The notes beneath the pieces are model-generated. The model did no database searches. It saw only the letters and a program-made list of their open reading frames with translations, and had not been told where the DNA came from. Positions 22,859 to 42,243 of a stretch of DNA of 64,000 nucleotides are shown in pieces. The stretch spans positions 142,188 to 206,187 of the forward strand of contig CAYZTC010000001.1 in NCBI GenBank assembly GCA_964481345.1, read 5' to 3'. Source of the stretch: an uncultured Candidatus Saccharibacteria bacterium. Lineage in GTDB: Bacteria; Patescibacteriota; Dojkabacteria; SC72; JAFGCJ01. Both the position numbers and the translations under genes were made by a program. Positions within the stretch are counted from its first letter, which is position 1. Each line of letters begins with the position of its first letter.

Positions 22859-25207
22859 TTACAGCAAATTCTCCACTAGTTTTTTGAATTCTTTTAATTT
22901 CTCCTCAATTTTTTTCTTATCAATCTGGGAATTTCCTTGGAGTATTACAAGTATATCCTTTGTGTCGGTTGTAATTTTTGTTCTATCGCATTGTTTTACT
23001 GTAAGTCTGCATATTACACCTTTATCATCAATGTAACAGTATTCTCCTTTTTTAGCCGTCATTTTTTCATCATTTCCCATTTGAGTAAATTCTTGATCTT
23101 CTTTTAACATCACCAACTTTACATTTCCAACTATTTTTGACATATCGTGTGCGCCAAATGTAATTCCAGATTCGATTGAAAAGATGTTGTATAGGTCGAC
23201 AAATGTATTTATATTGGGGATATTTCCCTTCTCCAGAAGCAATTCAGTAAGTTTTTCACTTGCGGCCGGAAGGTTCTTTTCCTTTGAATACATGTCATGT
23301 TGCTCTCTGTATGCCTTATTTTCTGGAATGGCGGAAATGTCTTGTTTTTCATATTTTTTAATTAGTTCCTTTTGCTTTTCTTCCATCCATTTTTTTAAGG
23401 TTGAACTTTGTCTTTTGATGTTCAAGTTCTTAATTATTGTCCATGTGATTGGGATATCCTTTTTAAGATTTTCATTCTGAACTAGTTCAAAATTTGAATA
23501 GTCAACGGTTTTCACATTCTCTGTTACTGGGTCAATTTTATTAAAGAGTACTTCTGGCTTTTCTTTTATTTTGATATTCTTTAATTCTTCAAATTTCCAG
23601 CCTTCATCTTCATATTCAATGTTCAAAAGTCTGAATATTTTGTCGGATATTTCTGGCATGAATGGCCTCGATGTTATCGCCAAGGCCTTTATGATTTGAA
23701 TACAGTCATATATTGTCTGGCTGCACTTTTGTGGATCTGACTTGAGTGTGGCCCAAGGTTGATTCCTATCAAAATATTTATTTCCAAATTGGGCAAGTTC
23801 TATAAAGCTGTCAGTTGCTTTTGAAAACTCACATTTTTCGATAAGATCACCGACCCCTTTAATTGACTTGTCTATTGCGTTTTTGACCTCTGTGCTTATG
23901 GTCAGTTTTTCTTCGATTATTCCATCGAGTTTTGAAAATACAAAGTAGAGATTTCTATTTATAAAGTTCCCGAAAGTTGCGACAAGTTCATTATTATTTA
24001 GATCTACGATATCCTTATACGTGAACTTTCGATCGTGGTTTTCAGGTGCATATTTGCAGAAGAAATATCTCACTAAATCTGTACCGTACTGATCTAACAG
24101 TAAATCTGCTTCAAGTAATGTGCCTTTGCTTTTTGAAATTTTTGTTCCTCTTTCAGTAAGAAACTGGTTTGCAGGTATATTGTATGGAAGATTTAGTGGT
24201 TCGGCTCTTGTTTCTCCAGGCAAACTTGGCTCATATTTTCCATTTTTATATTTCTTGTTGTATGCAATTATTATTGCTGGCCATAGTATTGTATGAAACG
24301 GAATATTGTCTTTGGCGATGAAGTAGAAATGCTTTGCCTTAGGGTTTTTCCAAAAGTGTTCCCATTTACTTGGATCTTTGCTTTTACTTGCCCACTCGAT
24401 GGATGCGCTTAGATATCCCATTACTGCCTCAAACCATACGTATATGTCTTGGTCTTTGTATTTTTCGATTGGGATATCAACTCCGTACCCTATTTTTCTT
24501 GACACGGCCCTTTCTCTTAGTCCCTCTTTTAACCATGATTGAGCAAATCCTATTACCCTTTCTCTCCAAACATTTTTACTGTTTTTAACTAATTCTCTTA
24601 TCTGTTTATCAAACCTGGGTAGATCAAAAAATAACACTGTATGTTTTTTCAGTATAGGTTTTTCTCCCGTAAGTTTACTTTTGGGGTTTTTTAGATCTGA
24701 AGGATCAAGAGTTCTTTCACAGCCATCATTGCACTGATCGCCTCTTGCTTTTGTGTTGCCACAATATGGGCATGTGCCCTCGATATATCTGTCTGCTAGA
24801 AACTGTTTTGCTTTTGGATCGTAGTACTGTTCGACTTCTTTTGGGTATATGTCTTTGTTTTCGTACATTACTTTAAATAGGTTTTGTGCGATCTCTTTGT
24901 GGTTTTGTGATTCTGTAGTAGTAAAGATGTCCCATTGAGTATTTAGTTTTTTAAATGTTTCTAGAAAGGATTTACTGTACTTTTCTGCAAGTTTATCTGG
25001 CGGCAGTCCTTCTTTTTGGGCTTTTACTGTAACAGGAGTTCCGTGTGCATCAGCACCGGAGACCAAAAGTACGTCATTACCTTTTTGTCTGTGGTATCTT
25101 GCAAAGACATCGCATACCACATTTTGTCCTGCGAGATGACCAATATGTAACTTTGAGTTAGCATATGGCCAGGAAACACCTATAAATATTGTTTCTTTGA
25201 TTTTTAT
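22859..25207 (-). CDS. metG: Methionyl-tRNA synthetase; 5' end extended beyond ORF-track start (25120) to include HIGH motif; start codon non-canonical/uncertain
   Basis: Zn knuckle CPYCGNTKARGDQCNDGCE, KISKSKG; manual translation upstream of 25120 gives ...IKIKETIFIGVSWPYANSKLHIGHLAGQNV in frame with no ATG/GTG/TTG before the stop at 25238-25240. Confidence 0.8.
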   Translation of the reverse strand: MKIKETIFIGVSWPYANSKLHIGHLAGQNVVCDVFARYHRQKGNDVLLVSGADAHGTPVTVKAQKEGLPPDKLAEKYSKSFLETFKKLNTQWDIFTTTESQNHKEIAQNLFKVMYENKDIYPKEVEQYYDPKAKQFLADRYIEGTCPYCGNTKARGDQCNDGCERTLDPSDLKNPKSKLTGEKPILKKHTVLFFDLPRFDKQIRELVKNSKNVWRERVIGFAQSWLKEGLRERAVSRKIGYGVDIPIEKYKDQDIYVWFEAVMGYLSASIEWASKSKDPSKWEHFWKNPKAKHFYFIAKDNIPFHTILWPAIIIAYNKKYKNGKYEPSLPGETRAEPLNLPYNIPANQFLTERGTKISKSKGTLLEADLLLDQYGTDLVRYFFCKYAPENHDRKFTYKDIVDLNNNELVATFGNFINRNLYFVFSKLDGIIEEKLTISTEVKNAIDKSIKGVGDLIEKCEFSKATDSFIELAQFGNKYFDRNQPWATLKSDPQKCSQTIYDCIQIIKALAITSRPFMPEISDKIFRLLNIEYEDEGWKFEELKNIKIKEKPEVLFNKIDPVTENVKTVDYSNFELVQNENLKKDIPITWTIIKNLNIKRQSSTLKKWMEEKQKELIKKYEKQDISAIPENKAYREQHDMYSKEKNLPAASEKLTELLLEKGNIPNINTFVDLYNIFSIESGITFGAHDMSKIVGNVKLVMLKEDQEFTQMGNDEKMTAKKGEYCYIDDKGVICRLTVKQCDRTKITTDTKDILVILQGNSQIDKKKIEEKLKEFKKLVENLL

Positions 25208-25284: not shown

Positions 25285-25725
25285 ATGTCCATAGAACTAT
25301 TTCAACAGTATTGCAAACAAAATAAAATAGAGGTTGATGTTCTTAATGAGGGGTCTACAACTCATACAGCGAGGGACTCGGCGAAAACTCACGGTATTGA
25401 CTTGAACAGGATTGTTAAATCATTATTGATCAAAATTGGAGGTGAGTTTTGTGTTTTTCTTGTGCCAGGTAACAAAAGGTTAGACTTTAAATATCTTGAG
25501 GAACGTTTTGGTACGGAGGATATTAGAATGGCAACTGCAGACGAGGTGAAGGAGATGACCGGTTATTCTATCGGAGGTGTTCCACCTTTTGGGCATAAGA
25601 AAAAGTTGAAAACGCATATTGAAGATGGTTTTCCAGCCAGTAAGCAACTGTTAGCAGCAGCTGGAAGAGAAGATTCTGTGTTTTGGGTAGGTTTGGATAA
25701 GTTGAAAGAGATTGCCGCTGGCTAG
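25285..25725 (+). CDS. YbaK/ProX-type aminoacyl-tRNA deacylase (start may be 25249)
   Basis: MSIELFQQYC...GYSIGGVPPFGHKKK matches YbaK deacylase domain. Confidence 0.7.
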   Translation: MSIELFQQYCKQNKIEVDVLNEGSTTHTARDSAKTHGIDLNRIVKSLLIKIGGEFCVFLVPGNKRLDFKYLEERFGTEDIRMATADEVKEMTGYSIGGVPPFGHKKKLKTHIEDGFPASKQLLAAAGREDSVFWVGLDKLKEIAAG

Positions 25726-25760
25726 ACTCATAGTGTGTTTTCGTGAGATAATTCCATACG
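25721..25760. repeat. Repeat element A copy 1 (gctggctagactcatagtgtgttttcgtgagataattcc), promoter-like (TAGACT-N18-GATAAT) 25 bp upstream of gene
   Basis: Identical 40-mer recurs at 27022-27060, a degenerate third copy ~27905-27945. Confidence 0.7.
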
Positions 25761-25783
25761 TTTAATGTTTTTGGCTGGATATT

Positions 25784-26785
25784 ATGTCTCCGCAAGAAGA
25801 ATTAGATGATTATATTGCTGGCAGTGAGGATCGTGATCCATTACTAACCTTTCTGCCCCTGGGACTACCTGATATGTTCGGGCAAGAAATCATCGCTAGT
25901 CCCGATAATAAGAAATTTGAGATTATTATTCACAATGATCCTGGAGGCCACAGACCAATTGATATTTTCGAAAAGGTTGTCGGTTTCACATATGAAGTGT
26001 TGATTAATGCAAAGCGAGTTAGTGTGTGTGGGTCCTCTTTCTGCAAAGAAGACGGTAAGGAAAATATTGGAAAGATAGATAAGTTTAACGAAGACCTTGT
26101 TCTTTTCCTCCAAAAAGGGGTAATGTCGAAGTTTTTATATGATGCATTTCCCGATAATGGACTCAGAAGATCCTTTTTGGGTCGTATTATTCTTGGAGCA
26201 CCGCGGGAAATATCTATTGACTGGTATGAAAATTCACAGGAAGAGGCAGAAAAAAGAAAAAGGGAAGAAGAAGCTTTTGGATCGTTAGTAGAAATGGATC
26301 CATTAGTCGTTATGAGAATGGTGGGGGATTTCTGCTCTGAGATACCTTTAAGATATAAACAAATAATACGGAAGGAAGGGAAGAATACAGCAAATGGATC
26401 TGGACGTGTTTCTATTGCAATAACCAAGAAGGAATTTACGCTCATAAAGTATTTTGCACATAAGTTCGAACAATTCAGCCGTTTGGATGGCGTTGGTAAA
26501 CATCGCTCATTTAAGCCAGGAGGTAAATATCGTTCAAAAAAGCCAAGAGGAAGAAGAGGGAGGGAAATTATGGACCTAGAACAAAACGAGATAAAAAACA
26601 TGCTCGAATCGAATAAAGAAGCTTTATCTCCAAGGGAGAGAATCATACTTGAGTTAAGGTTTGGTCTTCAGGGTAGAGAACCAAGAACTCTTGAGGAAGT
26701 GGGAGAAAAGTTTAACTTAACAAAACAAAGAATTAAACAAATTGAAGCAAAAGCATTAGAAAAGTTAGAAGACGCATCTACTTAA
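25784..26785 (+). CDS. Sigma-70 region 4 domain protein (stand-alone r4 HTH fused to novel N-terminal region)
   Basis: C-terminus [48 protein letters not shown] is ~75% identical to region 4 of RpoD encoded at 41101-42243; no regions 1.2-3 present. Confidence 0.6.
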
Positions 26786-26917
26786 GAATTTAGCAATAGT
26801 TGAATATGTATAAACGTTGTGCAACGGCATATATTAATGATTTCCAACTTGAGGTGTTCGTAATTCCTATTTTTCCTTTTTTATAACAGCATAATTGGTA
26901 GGTGCTATCTTGAGAGA

Positions 26918-27021
26918 ATAAGAAAAGAAGAAAAGGTCAGTGAGATTTTTTGGGTTTTGTCCCCATATAGGTTTTTTAGCCAAACCACGAATTCCTTTAT
27001 CCCACTGACCATTTTGTTATC
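26918..27021. repeat. Repeat element B copy 1 (~100 bp nested inverted-repeat element) directly fused to element A copy 2
   Basis: gaaaagaagaaaaggtcagtgag...cccactgaccattttgttatcgctggctag; outer arms ggtcagtgag/cccactgacc; second copy at 27805-27915. Confidence 0.7.
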
Positions 27022-27060
27022 GCTGGCTAGACTCATAGTGTGTTTTCGTGAGATAATTCC
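27022..27060. repeat. Repeat element A copy 2
   Basis: Exact 39/40 match to 25721-25760; 30 bp upstream of ORF 27092. Confidence 0.7.
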
Positions 27061-27091
27061 CCTATCAACTAATTTCTGCATTTAATTAATA

Positions 27092-27781
27092 ATGAACTCC
27101 ATAAATGGAGGGACGAATGCTAGGAAACAAGGTTCAAGTCCTACTGAAAGAGGGGATGCAATTACTCCCATAGTCATTAATTTTTCGATGAAAGAAATTG
27201 AAAAGTGCATCAATAGTGCGGAGAAAAATCCATATGGTAGTTATTTAATAGATGTTTCTGGTGGCAATGATAGTGATGGATATGTAGACTCTTTTTGGGG
27301 TGCGGAGAACCATCTAAAAGTTTGTTTGGGGCAATATTTAGGCAGTAGAGAAAAGATCCAAAAATTGGCTGAAAGTTATGATGGTATTGAAATTTTTTAT
27401 AGGCATGTATCAGAATTTTTAGAAAATGGATTAATAAGTACTGGGTTCTACAAAAAGTTTGGAAGAGATTATTTGTTTTTGAAGTACTATGCCATGTATC
27501 TTATATTAAATAGAGATAGAGTCCTTATCCGTTACGGAGAGGAGAAGAAAAAGTCTCGGGCGCAAATCAGGCTATATGAATTGGAGAGAAAACATGGAAA
27601 CTTAGTAAATTTGGACAGCATTGACAAAATGCATCAATCTAAGGCTGCGATAGGGAGAGTCAGGCGGAAACTTCAAAGAGATCGTAAAATACAGATTAGT
27701 GCTTGTGATTACAAGGTTTTGAGTTTGTATATAGATTTGATAAAGCCATTTTTTCGTATGAGCCTTGACGACAAAGAGTAG
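27092..27781 (+). CDS. Hypothetical protein
   Basis: 229 aa ORF flanked by repeat A (upstream) and repeat B (downstream). Confidence 0.5.
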   Translation: MNSINGGTNARKQGSSPTERGDAITPIVINFSMKEIEKCINSAEKNPYGSYLIDVSGGNDSDGYVDSFWGAENHLKVCLGQYLGSREKIQKLAESYDGIEIFYRHVSEFLENGLISTGFYKKFGRDYLFLKYYAMYLILNRDRVLIRYGEEKKKSRAQIRLYELERKHGNLVNLDSIDKMHQSKAAIGRVRRKLQRDRKIQISACDYKVLSLYIDLIKPFFRMSLDDKE

Positions 27782-27804
27782 TGTTGTCGTTTTATTGAAA
27801 ACAT

Positions 27805-27915
27805 TAAGAAAAGAAGAAAAGGTCAGTGAGATTTTTGGGTTTGGTTCCCGTACGGGCTTGCTAACCAAACCACAAATCCCTTTATCCCACCGACCTTCTG
27901 TTATCGCTAGCTAGA
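27805..27915. repeat. Repeat element B copy 2 (inner palindrome cccgtacggg; inner arms gggtttggtt/aaccaaaccac)
   Basis: ~85% identical to 26918-27021 with indel in apical region. Confidence 0.7.
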
Positions 27916-28181
27916 AACTATGGATCACTTACTTTCGGTGATCATTTTTCTCTCCCACACCACGTGTAGGTCTCGTTCGCGTCTTCTTTCTCTCCTCTTT
28001 TTTGTGATCAGAGTTACGCTGTTTAGTTCCTTTTTTGCACATATATACTCCTTTGCAATTTGTGCCCTCCGACCGGGGGTTTTACAATGAGCTAGCGACA
28101 TGAGCTATAGGATATACTCTTATACCCCATTCTGTCAATATTCTGTTGTTCATAAAATATTTCTGGTAATATTTCTATTGA

Positions 28182-29207
28182 ATGGGAATACCTCTGAAAA
28201 TCGCAAAAATTGTAGGAAAAGTTCTACTTGGGTTTTTAGGTTTGATAGTGATCTTCTGGATTGTTTTATCAATACTGTCCCCTTTTGGAATTCCAGAAGG
28301 GAATAGTGTTGACTATATGAAAGGGGTATGGATGCCTGATCCGCGAGAGCATTTTTCTGCCTATTTCAATATGGAACGTTTGAGGGAAGATGGAGTGAAC
28401 ACAATTTCCCTTGGTCCCCTTGCCTACAATAAATTACTAGCGACTATTCACAGACCGTTCATTTCAGCGATAGTAAAAAAAGCACATAAAAATGGTATGG
28501 CGGTTCATATTGCCCCAAATAGCTGGGGTCCAGGATTTAGTCATGAAGATCCACACATTGAAATGGAAGATTTGCTTACAGAACAAGCTATTTACTGGGC
28601 AGAATTTGCTGAACAGTACAATGTGGAATATTTTTCTCCTCAGAATGAACATGATGTTGTACTTGGATGTGGGTTTGGTGCAAAGTGGGCCCAGGATATT
28701 TTGGATGATATTCGAGAGGTATATTCAGGTGAGATAATACTTAAAATTGGATCGGTATACTGTGAAGCTGATCCAGATTATCAAATAGAAATAAAGTCTT
28801 TAGGAGATGAAAATAGCTTCTGGCCAGGCAAATTTTCGGATGCTACGGGATACGACTATTTCATGATAGATATATTGCCATTTAGTGATGATGTGGATAG
28901 GGATTTGTTTTTGGAAGATCTTGAAAATATATTGGGGTATGCAAGACAGGAGGTTGAAAGGAAAGAATTGAAGGGGTTTATGATAGGTGAATTTGGATAT
29001 CTGACCGAAAAGCCTGCGATGGTTGCAAGTATTATGCCTGGACCAGAATTAACAGAAGAGGAACAGGCTCAAGGAATTGAGGACTATTTGGAGGTTGCAA
29101 TGCCAATGGTTGATGGAATAGTATATTGCGGCTGGACTCTAGATGGATATGGATTTAAGGACAAACTTGCCGAAGATGTAATAAAAGAAAAATTTAGTTC
29201 ATACTGA
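28182..29207 (+). CDS. Membrane-anchored putative glycoside hydrolase (TIM-barrel, GH5/GH113-like)
   Basis: 341 aa; N-terminal TM, then motifs NTISLGP, ...FSPQNEHD suggestive of clan GH-A catalytic NE[PH] motif; weak. Confidence 0.4.
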   Translation: MGIPLKIAKIVGKVLLGFLGLIVIFWIVLSILSPFGIPEGNSVDYMKGVWMPDPREHFSAYFNMERLREDGVNTISLGPLAYNKLLATIHRPFISAIVKKAHKNGMAVHIAPNSWGPGFSHEDPHIEMEDLLTEQAIYWAEFAEQYNVEYFSPQNEHDVVLGCGFGAKWAQDILDDIREVYSGEIILKIGSVYCEADPDYQIEIKSLGDENSFWPGKFSDATGYDYFMIDILPFSDDVDRDLFLEDLENILGYARQEVERKELKGFMIGEFGYLTEKPAMVASIMPGPELTEEEQAQGIEDYLEVAMPMVDGIVYCGWTLDGYGFKDKLAEDVIKEKFSSY

Positions 29208-29246
29208 GGAGCACATGTGAGGCAGAGTGCCCCTCAGAAAGAACTC

Positions 29247-29675
29247 TTATAGATGAATAGAAACGTAATATCGCTGTTGCCAGAGGTAAAAGATTTCCTC
29301 AAAATCTAAAATATGTTTCTCTGGGAAGAAAAGTTCCCAGTTTTTCTGAGTGGATAATCCGATGATATACATCGGTAGTTTGGGTAATGTTTTTCCGTCA
29401 GAAAAAGAGATAATCTTTTGATTGTATCTAACAACAATTAAATATCTTGGGCCATCTCTAGAGGGTAGAAATTTGTCCCTTCTTGTTTCGGACCCTCTCA
29501 TTATGATCTCCAACTCCTTGTATGGATCTTCTGAAACCCAGACATTTCCAGTATGGAGAGGAGAAACGTGAGATTTTTCAGCTTCTGATAACAATGCCAA
29601 TCCTAGACCTTTTAGTATAGCCTTATACTTCCAGTTTAATCTCGCGGTTTCTAAAAATGCAATTATTTCCGCCAT
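29247..29675 (-). CDS. Hypothetical protein
   Basis: 142 aa ORF. Confidence 0.4.
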   Translation of the reverse strand: MAEIIAFLETARLNWKYKAILKGLGLALLSEAEKSHVSPLHTGNVWVSEDPYKELEIIMRGSETRRDKFLPSRDGPRYLIVVRYNQKIISFSDGKTLPKLPMYIIGLSTQKNWELFFPEKHILDFEEIFYLWQQRYYVSIHL

Positions 29676-29770
29676 TTCTTCTTCTCCTTTCGTTTTTTAA
29701 GAGCTTTAGAGGATTATATGTTTTCTATGGGGTACTTGGCAATATCATTGTTGTAATACTGATATAATCT

Positions 29771-39227: not shown

Positions 39228-39638
39228 TGGTGGAGACGGTGGGAATTGAACCCACGTCCAAAAGAATCGTCAAATGCAATGATACAAGCTTAGTCAGTTT
39301 GACTAATCAAGGATTTAAAAACTGACAAAATAATCCCTGAAGAGGTGATTTTAAAAATTCTCAGGTTGGGCTCACCTGGTTACCCTTCCTGTATATCCCG
39401 AAAATGAACGAGCTTTAGATACCTCATCGGGAAGAAGTGACCCAAGCTCACAGTGGAATTACCCTACTGACATGTTCATGTTGAGACCAGCAAAAGCTGA
39501 GTTAACACCTGCTGCAAATTTCTTTGCTGCTAGTTGAACACGGTTTTTAAGTGAATCTGCACTTATTTTTTGTTTTTAAGAGCGATTACTCTGCTTGGTG
39601 CATAGGACTTTAGCTTTTGTCGAAGCCTTGTCGTCCCC
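39228..39638 (-). ncRNA. ssrA: tmRNA (ssrA), one-piece, ~411 nt
   Basis: 5' GGGGACGACAAGGCTTCGAC... pairs with 3' ...GGGTTCAATTCCCACCGTCTCCACCA (tRNA-Ala-like acceptor with G3:U70, T-arm, encoded CCA); TATAAT boxes just upstream at 39651-39666. Confidence 0.8.
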
Positions 39639-40885: not shown

Positions 40886-41104
40886 ATGACTAAAAGATTA
40901 CTAGGAATAATAATTTTTTCAGTATTGACTGTTGTTATATGGATTGGATTTGAGGTATGGATGAGGCTTGGTTCTCAGGAAATACAGTTGAACTATGAAA
41001 ACTATCTTCAGACTGTAGATTCAGAGTTTGATTCAGAAACGATAGATGAACTTGTGACAAGGGAGGAAGAGTATATGCTTATAGATCGTGACGACTTGGA
41101 CTAG
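40886..41104 (+). CDS. Small membrane-anchored hypothetical protein
   Basis: 72 aa ORF with N-terminal TM, follows pilO. Confidence 0.35.
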
Positions 41105-42243
41105 TCAATATAATCCTTGAGCTGTTTTTCAGAGGAAAATGTCTTTAGCTTTTTCAGTGCCTTTGCTTCAATCTGTCGGATTCTTTCTCTTGTTACGCCA
41201 AACTCTCTTCCCACTTCTTCAAGGGTTCTCGTGACTCCATCCTGAAGACCAAACCTTAACTCAAGTACCCTTCTTTCCCGGTCCTGGAGAGAGTTTAAGA
41301 TATCTCTCATTTGGCTTTGAAGAAATGCGTTTGTGGCAAGATCTTCTGGCGAAAGAGTTTTTTCGTCAGGGATTATGTCTTGAAGTTGGCTATCCTGCTC
41401 TTTTCCGATGGGAGTAGAAAGAGACTTAGGATGCTGTTGAATTTTGAGAATATTATTTACCTTATCCACCTCTAGTTCCATCACCTTTCCTATCTCTTCT
41501 GGGGTGGGTTTTCTTCCGAGTTCTGCTGAAAGCTGAGCTGAGACCTTACTCAGTTTATTGATTGTTTCATGCATATGTACTGGTATTCTGATGGTTCTTG
41601 CCTGGTCAGCAATAGATCTTGTAATTGCCTGTCTTATCCACCAGGTAGCGTATGTTGAAAACTTAAATCCCCTTTTATAATCAAACTTTTCAACAGCCCT
41701 CATTAGTCCAATATTACCCTCCTGGATGAGATCTAGAAGATGTAATCCCCTGTTTGCATACTTCTTTGCTATGCTAACAACAAGTCTCAGGTTTGCAGTC
41801 ACGAGAAGCTGCTTTGCCTCCTCCTCCTTCTTTTCGACTCTTTTTGCCAGAGTAACCTCTTCCTCTTTAGTGAGAAGTGGGGTCTTTCCGATCTCTTGAA
41901 GATATGATCTAATAGCGTCATTTGAGATATTTGACTGGATAGATTTAAGTATCTTTATCTTCTTCTCCAATGTCATCTCTTCCTCTTCTTCCTCAAGCTT
42001 CTCCTCTGGCACATCAAGTACTTCGATACCGTTGTATTGGAGGGTGATAAATATTTCATCTAGTGCATCTAGATGGTTTTCTATGTGTGGAATTTCTTTT
42101 AGTATGTCCTCCTGTGTTAAAAAACCCTGCTCTTTTCCCTGCTTTACTAACAGTTTCATAACCTTTTCAATTTTTGCTTTTCTTGAGCTCTTGGGTTTAG
42201 TTTTTGTTTTTTTAGTTCTTTTAGTTTTTTTCTTACCAGCCAT
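41101..42243 (-). CDS. rpoD: RNA polymerase sigma factor RpoD (sigma-70) with basic N-terminal tail
   Basis: 380 aa; regions 1.2, 2 ([12 protein letters not shown]), 3 and 4 ([12 protein letters not shown]...[13 protein letters not shown]) all present. Confidence 0.9.

Follow-up and report, generated by a model that had tools for sequence, protein, structure and literature searches.

The window analysed here, a 64-kb stretch of contig CAYZTC010000001.1 from an uncultivated low-GC bacterium (GC content of the window 36.9%), encodes at positions 25784-26785 of the plus strand a protein of 333 amino acids (aa), P0001, hereafter referred to as the target, which ends with a region 4 domain of the sigma70 type (sigma-4, r4). 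Its sequence provides good support for a chimera of an orphan, lineage-specific scaffold and a sigma-4 captured from rpoD, and judged by its domains the target is not a sigma factor. We report its domain composition, the absence of sigma-2 and sigma-3, its membership of a protein family, the synteny of its locus, the descent of its r4 DNA from rpoD and the substitution pattern of the captured domain. Furthermore we propose, at a probability of about 0.5, that the target is a sequence-specific DNA-binding regulator with an altered -35-like specificity, a proposal that comprises its DNA binding, its target sites and its regulatory role.

Domain composition of the target

The target gene and its parts are located in the window as follows.

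25784..26785, plus strand: target gene P0001, 333 aa, open reading frame (ORF) from ATG to stop, composed of scaffold, basic linker and RpoD-derived sigma-4
25784..26491, plus strand: scaffold domain, aa 1-236, helical N-domain and strand-helix C-motif, no known family or fold
26492..26569, plus strand: K/R/G-rich low-confidence linker, aa 237-262 (predicted local distance difference test, pLDDT, <50 at residues 233-266)
26582..26782, plus strand: captured sigma-4, aa 267-333, regions 4.1-4.2, stopping before helix H5 (Pfam, PDB, Foldseek, tblastn)
26723..26740, plus strand: recognition-helix codons K314-Q315-R316-I317-K318-Q319, equivalent to R584-E585-R586-I587-R588-Q589 of E. coli sigma70

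The Pfam family Sigma70_r4 (PF04545) was detected at aa 280-328 (E 1.8e-15; 56.6 bits vs a cutoff of 24.1), and the sigma-4 part matched domain 4 of sigmaA and sigma70 among the PDB sequences with E-values down to 8.6e-14. In the Foldseek search against the PDB only the last ~59 residues of the target matched sigmaA domain 4 chains (probability 0.95-0.99), so that Pfam, PDB and Foldseek all assign the helix-turn-helix (HTH) of regions 4.1-4.2 to sigma-4. An earlier interpretation made from the DNA letters alone (the sequence-only reading) had placed a complete sigma70 region 4 at the C-terminal end and a K/R-rich segment adjoining it; both are borne out, the latter at aa ~237-262. The first part of this linker represents the ancestral basic C-terminal tail of the scaffold family, aligning with the tails of the homologues P0121 and P0122 described below.

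No Pfam match was obtained for regions 1.2, 2 and 3 in the target, and its first 262 aa gave none at all, even at E<=10. Profile-profile comparison of the scaffold family using hhalign resulted in probabilities of 0.4% (three members) and 0.1% (five members) against an alignment of 22 RpoD sequences, and of 0.1% against E. coli RpoE. The full-length sigma factor 'hits' of the target in Foldseek had a template-modelling (TM) score of ~0.14 and a root-mean-square deviation of ~29 A. Neither sigma-2 (regions 2.1-2.4) nor sigma-3 was found by the Pfam, profile-profile and Foldseek searches, not even as cryptic regions in the N-terminal part, and the view of the sequence-only reading that a protein without regions 1.2-3 cannot play a conventional sigma role is in agreement with all three.

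The model TIGR02937, which describes sigma70 factors of the extracytoplasmic function (ECF) type, nominally passes on the target (47.6 vs 42.9 bits), with an alignment that covers only profile positions 62-163 and thus only the sigma-4 side. Taking into account the RpoE comparison as well, the sigma-2 plus sigma-4 architecture of ECF (group 4) sigma factors is not present, and a likeness of aa 100-141 to ECF region 2, noticed by eye, was not borne out. Since TIGR02937 passes its cutoff, automated pipelines would probably call the target a 'sigma-70 family sigma factor', which would be the wrong name.

Nor is the target a decayed rpoD copy, since its similarity to rpoD starts only at aa ~267, and BLASTP, DNA comparison and tblastn detected none before this position. 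A disrupted rpoD paralogue or pseudogene fragment, the other outcome that the sequence-only reading had considered, was rejected as orthologues without rpoD similarity exist for the upstream 262 aa and the ORF is intact.

Among NCBIfam and PADLOC models the top match was MzaA of the MZA anti-phage system (NF041931 / PDLC02203) with 65.8 bits vs a cutoff of 800. This likeness is confined to the 65-aa r4, no other MZA components were detected nearby by PADLOC, and MzaA was rejected. A phage or defence origin was rejected as well: no relatives were found in viral contigs, PHROG and PADLOC matches were obtained at the level of r4 only, and PADLOC found no defence systems around the target. An internal start at M263, yielding a free sigma-4 of 71 aa, is unsupported, the GGGAGGG before this ATG being explained by R/G/E codons. 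A Shine-Dalgarno-like motif was present upstream of only 2 of 27 sampled genes of the window, which suggests that translation initiation in this organism is largely independent of such motifs.

Origin of the captured domain and of its scaffold

The resident primary sigma factor is encoded in the same window.

41101..42243, minus strand: housekeeping rpoD, 380 aa, regions 1.1, 1.2, 2, 3 and 4 (Pfam)
41131..41319, minus strand: probable donor-lineage segment, rpoD sigma-4, RpoD aa 309-371 (27-nt run, codon sharing, synonymous differences)

According to tblastn the sigma-4 DNA of the target (26582..26782) pairs with 41319-41131 of rpoD. The two r4 segments have an exact run of 27 nt in common, and the same codon is used at 23 of the 36 identical residues, the expectation derived from this genome's codon usage being 13.9 +/- 2.8 (P ~0.001). 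Four control rpoD genes with protein identities at least as high, two of which (L009, L011) were matched in low GC, shared 11-17 of 34-36 codons with the target and exact runs of 8-14 nt. The proportion of synonymous differences (pS) between the target and its own rpoD amounts to 0.46, down to 0.20 in aa 289-313, and both are saturated with respect to the other rpoD genes (pS 0.74-1.03). Based on the codon sharing, the exact run and the low pS, the r4 DNA of the target is, as judged from these sequence comparisons, a descendant of this lineage's rpoD.

The relationship to the window's rpoD claimed by the sequence-only reading is thereby confirmed, but its figure of ~75% identity is not: 54% were obtained over 67 aa (BLASTP), 32/50 (64%) for aa 280-329 and 31/45 (69%) for the core quoted there, counted by hand. 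At the protein level the r4 of the organism's own RpoD is only median in identity to the target among 123 retrieved proteins, the best retrieved RpoD proteins reaching 35/48 identities to the target r4. As to whether the capture is recent or ancient, the domain is derived from this lineage's rpoD but not very recently (synonymous divergence, dS, ~0.7). The target keeps the consensus residues S282, P283 and P300, positions at which its own RpoD has changed, and the less-diverged patch at aa 289-313 might stem from gene conversion.

As a side observation, an RpoD homologue of 541 aa (P0002) on a 10.9-kb ENA contig contains regions 3.2-4 exactly duplicated in tandem, the duplicated stretch of ~140 aa reading '...SPEEIAKEMSMPVDR...EAKALRKLRHP'. 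Either the assembly is at fault here or rpoD was partially duplicated in nature, in a way that could seed a sigma-4 capture.

The N-terminal ~260 aa, regarded as novel by the sequence-only reading, indeed match no known family or fold, but they have homologues in related genomes and in the gene beside the target. An exhaustive phmmer search with aa 1-262 of the target against 1.84 billion representatives detected P0121 (319 aa; E 2.4e-22; 31% identity) and P0122 (249 aa; E 8.4e-5). The gene order at the P0121 locus (L007) is the same as at the target locus, namely methionyl-tRNA synthetase (MetRS) on the minus strand, YbaK/tRNA_edit on the plus strand and the family gene. Using the conserved tRNA_edit protein as synteny anchor for finding more members, a 254-aa protein in L013 (hmmsearch E 2.8e-8) and a partial ORF in L016 (E 4.7e-12) were identified directly downstream of tRNA_edit in closer relatives. 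The family thus consists of the target, P0121, P0122, the L013 protein, partial ORFs in L016 and L017 and, more weakly, gene 2, which is adjacent to the target. A position directly downstream of YbaK/tRNA_edit was observed in the window, L007, L013, L016 and L017; the contig of P0122 (L006) is too short to show this neighbourhood. Scans of metagenome contigs with protein patterns of the family and of tRNA_edit gave no matches. Similarity of the tRNA_edit and RpoD proteins indicates relatives of the organism among Dojkabacteria, WWE3 and Patescibacteria metagenome-assembled genomes (MAGs), plus one MAG labelled Chloroflexota.

The family members have a colinear N-domain motif, F..FL.....Y..FPD..(L)R..(F)L..IIL, a C-motif composed of a strand followed by K[DE]...L......F..F...D, and the basic tail in common. 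In both AlphaFold models the strand of the C-motif lies beside the N-terminal strands, suggesting that N-domain and C-motif form one unit. Orthologues are only 22-31% identical, which indicates very fast evolution. On L006 (193-735, 803-1552, 1618-1908) another probable family member was detected directly downstream of P0122, a partial ORF of 97 aa that hmmsearch reports at E 0.0012 and that matches the N-terminus of the target in BLASTP with 52% over 21 aa, and tandem paralogues of the scaffold family may be common.

A complete sigma-4 of the RpoD type, with its GLxDG loop, is present in P0121 as well (hhalign probability 87%, E 4.2e-6; 53 columns at 40% identity). This domain is nearer to the RpoD consensus (40%) than to the sigma-4 of the target (29%), and its insertion point lies after the last long helix and before the C-motif, whereas that of the target follows the basic tail. 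No sigma-4 was found in P0122 (hhalign), in gene 2 (Pfam, hhalign) or in the L013 protein (precomputed Pfam; tblastn of the L013 locus). Two independent gains of sigma-4 within the family appear to be the most parsimonious explanation for these very few sequences. It seems rather unlikely, although conceivable, that a cellular family repeatedly captures the host's primary sigma-4 at different insertion points, as a trans-acting module that re-reads -35-like sites or competes with RpoD; if so, it would represent a minimal global transcription control device in an uncultivated bacterium with a small genome and a living intermediate in the evolution from sigma factors to transcription factors with a sigma-4-type HTH.

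Substitutions in the captured domain and its possible function

Residues 280-330 of the target align with residues 550-600 of E. coli sigma70 at equal lengths. Among 35 near-invariant RpoD columns 29 are kept in the target, including all positions of the hydrophobic core, and the six changed ones comprise L to I, V to I and D to G replacements as well as K314, Q315 and K318. The latter correspond to R584K, E585Q and R588K of sigma70, so that all three residues reading the -35 element are changed. In sigma70, R584 and E585 contact bases at -31 and -33, and the substitutions E585Q, R588H and R584C relax the specificity, E585Q at -33 (PMC2613000); exactly the E585Q change is present in the target (Q315). 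The basic patch R596/R599/H600 is acidic (E326/E329/D330). Furthermore, the target stops at the equivalent of sigma70 residue 603 and lacks the far C-terminal helix H5, which is normally embedded in the beta-flap hook (PMC2988021), while its own RpoD keeps this tail.

In this scenario a sigma-4 copy of ~63 residues (RpoD aa ~309-371), without the sigma3-4 linker and H5, was fused behind the basic tail of an acceptor from a small, fast-evolving and lineage-specific family, which occupies a variable slot downstream of the YbaK-like gene in related uncultivated bacteria. The sigma-4 HTH would recognise a -35-like site, with help from the K/R-rich linker and with a specificity that is altered or relaxed. 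The scaffold domain would serve to form oligomers or to bind a partner, possibly gene 2, the paralogue that lacks sigma-4 and has an identical promoter. A regulator is favoured since the fold is preserved, the base-reading residues appear conservatively re-tuned instead of destroyed, the HTH is preceded by a basic linker, the domain lacks the H5 that is normally embedded in the flap and the family seems to have recruited sigma-4 twice.

Several points weigh against this proposal. The pairwise ratio of nonsynonymous to synonymous rates (dN/dS) of the target r4 vs rpoD is 0.37-0.41, indicating only moderate constraint, and as nearly all amino-acid changes fall on the target branch, the constraint there is possibly weak, with a ratio of perhaps 0.6-0.8, which may be compatible with partial decay of the captured domain. 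The target gene was found on five metagenome contigs that are 99.98-100% identical and thus clonal. No candidate binding sites were identified for the target, and the membership of gene 2 in the family rests on weak statistics (probability 44%). The structure check of the N-terminal region, suggested by the sequence-only reading, did reveal no known fold, but the models are moderate (pLDDT ~60 from a 3-sequence alignment), so this result is provisional.

The weak constraint would be in line with an evolutionary accident of little or no function, in which a partial rpoD duplicate became fused to an orphan by read-through and its tail is drifting. We consider this unlikely: the dN/dS of ~0.4, which rises to near 0.9 in the patch at aa 289-313, the very fast evolution of the family, the variable gene content of its slot and the occurrence of the target in one clonal population agree with it, but the 67-codon tail is intact at a dS of ~0.7 without loss of any hydrophobic-core residue, the substitutions gather on functional surface positions instead of being randomly scattered, and an RpoD-type sigma-4 occurs independently in another member of the family, so that the combination seems useful.

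The retained region 4.1 and hydrophobic core (29/35 columns) could also be read as those of a sigma-4 mimic that docks to the beta-flap of RNA polymerase (RNAP) or to a sigma-4 partner and competes with the r4 of RpoD, resulting in global damping or redirection of -35-dependent transcription, as in the decoy or appropriator that the sequence-only reading had put forward. A domain derived from the resident rpoD would be matched to the resident RNAP from the start, and changed DNA-reading residues are expected if DNA specificity no longer matters. However, of the flap-contacting elements H1, H2 and the far C-terminal H5, the last is absent at an end where the own RpoD continues, the core of region 4.1 being kept. 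A surface known for its interactions is altered by the charge reversal at the equivalents of R596/R599/H600, no high-affinity route to the core enzyme is known for a sigma-4 without sigma-2, and RNAP-related genes are not nearby. The idea of competition for -35 elements or the beta-flap is weakened by these changes together with those in the -35-reading residues, and the mimic appears doubtful. Split sigma factors, with sigma-2 and sigma-4 on separate polypeptides, exist (PMC7826278), and the target might provide the sigma-4 subunit of such a pair, of the SigO-RsoA type of B. subtilis, together with a sigma-2 partner; the neighbouring gene 2 is presumably co-regulated through its identical promoter element. 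This is highly improbable, as gene 2 is unlike any sigma region (hhalign 0.2% vs the RpoD profile; no Pfam, NCBIfam or PHROG match) and instead resembles the scaffold as a paralogue, the scaffold itself is not sigma-2-like, and tblastn found only two sigma-4 segments in the 64 kb, those of the target and rpoD, a stand-alone sigma-2 not having been scanned for. Within the window the neighbouring genes are without family matches in Pfam, NCBIfam and PHROG, and no adjacent sigma-2-like partner was found. From SigO-RsoA, with which it has a sigma-4 polypeptide without canonical sigma-2 in common, the target thus differs by the missing adjacent partner and by an N-terminal part unrelated to sigma regions.

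With respect to other known systems, the C-terminal 67 aa are a genuine sigma-4 of the kind found in RpoD/SigA (PF04545), with regions 4.1-4.2 and the group-1-type loop 'RFGLxxGxxRTLEEVG', but the target differs by the lack of regions 1.1-3 and of the H5 tail, by its changed -35 readers and acidic patch, and by its unrelated scaffold. Regulators of the LuxR/GerE/NarL type possess tetrahelical HTH effector domains structurally related to sigma-4. The DNA-binding regulator proposed for the target would follow the same principle, a sigma-4-like HTH on a different N-terminal domain in a non-sigma protein; however, its best match is Sigma70_r4, no GerE was among the Pfam matches at E<=0.1, its domain is a comparatively recent rpoD derivative and not an ancient LuxR-type one, and its N-terminal domain is no receiver or known sensor. 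The sigma-like domain of PhyR and T4 gp33 are examples of sigma mimics or sigma-4-targeting proteins. The T4 proteins AsiA and MotA target sigma-4 as well (PMC2988021), and the concept common to all of these is interference at the sigma-4/beta-flap/-35 interface. A literature search for sigma-4-only proteins in CPR/Patescibacteria found nothing relevant.

Sigma-4-like HTHs are widespread in non-sigma regulators, but they usually arose from sigma factors so long ago that the origin can no longer be followed. In the present case synonymous sites still reveal the donor, the resident rpoD; the domain was received by an orphan scaffold that evolves rapidly, and the sister orthologue P0121 has another RpoD-type sigma-4 at a different place. 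Should the target bind DNA, it would illustrate how a small genome can build a new regulator out of housekeeping parts; should it bind RNAP, it would be a competitor of sigma-4 encoded by the host.

Gene 2, the repeats and the variable slot

The following further features surround the target.

25285..25725, plus strand: YbaK/tRNA_edit gene, located upstream of the family and conserved as its synteny anchor
25716..25755, plus strand: repeat A1, promoter-like and predicted to drive the target; it overlaps the stop codon of tRNA_edit, the gene upstream
26925..27025: repeat B1, long conserved hairpin separating the target from gene 2; its minus strand has a T-run
27021..27060, plus strand: repeat A2, promoter-like, identical to A1 and located upstream of gene 2
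27092..27781, plus strand: gene 2, 229 aa, lacking sigma-4; probably a tandem paralogue within the scaffold family that has diverged (hhalign, hmmsearch, BLASTP)
27811..27910: repeat B2, second hairpin copy, after gene 2

BLASTP detected no similarity between gene 2 and the target. In hhalign gene 2 aligned colinearly to the family profile (E 0.004 with three members; E 2.3e-4 over 177 columns with five), it was the best ORF outside the training set for the hidden Markov model of the family (hmmsearch E 5.5e-6), and BLASTP matched it to the L013 member (E 2e-5), so that gene 2 is probably a diverged tandem paralogue of the scaffold family.

The repeats A1 and A2 are identical at 40/40 positions and can be read as a -35 TAGACT, an 18-nt spacer with TG and a -10 GATAAT; a homologue occurs at the same place in L007. 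The copies of repeat B (26919-27031 and 27805-27915) are ~86% identical, and 3 of 24 predicted pairs show compensatory changes across B1, B2 and L007. Repeat B forms a hairpin of ~75 nt that is also present at 2630-2725 of L007, where it was kept though the flanking proteins are only ~31% identical. No Rfam family matched it at the gathering threshold, and it could represent a bidirectional terminator or a small structured RNA. The sequence-only reading had placed the gene inside a repeat A/B cassette. The repeats do flank the gene, but a mobile or integron-like cassette was rejected: as L007, which is syntenic with the window, has both A and B at the corresponding positions, as a promoter-like element and a hairpin, the 'cassette' is best explained as a promoter-gene-hairpin unit duplicated in tandem. 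To judge by these alignments, the coding parts diverged almost beyond recognition after the duplication and the regulatory parts stayed similar.

The slot between tRNA_edit and NT5C (window 25726-29770) contains four genes, namely the target, gene 2 and two orphans of 341 and 142 aa. The same slot holds one gene in L013 (732-1814) and none in L014 (6442-6772), where tRNA_edit is followed by NT5C, and a 295-aa gene flanking it is conserved (67% and 45% identity). Directly upstream of hairpin B on the minus strand, both the window (~27945-28058) and L007 (2752-2892) contain a short, very basic ORF starting with MC..., MCKKGTKQRNSDHKKEERKKTRTRPTRGVGEKNDHRK and MCNRIKNYKKDENGK..., respectively, possibly a conserved gene for a small protein with the hairpin as its terminator.

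The MetRS gene (22859-25120, minus strand) is predicted to encode a C-terminal B3_4 domain (PF03483), according to precomputed Pfam matches on L003 and L014, and the stand-alone YbaK-like editing protein is encoded divergently beside it. The B3_4 domain is normally found in the beta subunit of phenylalanyl-tRNA synthetase. Furthermore, a transfer-messenger RNA gene was detected at 39228-39638 on the minus strand (Rfam, 121 bits), the predicted tag of which is unusually long with 33 aa (ADSLKNRVQLAAKKFAAGVNSAFAGLNMNMSVG).
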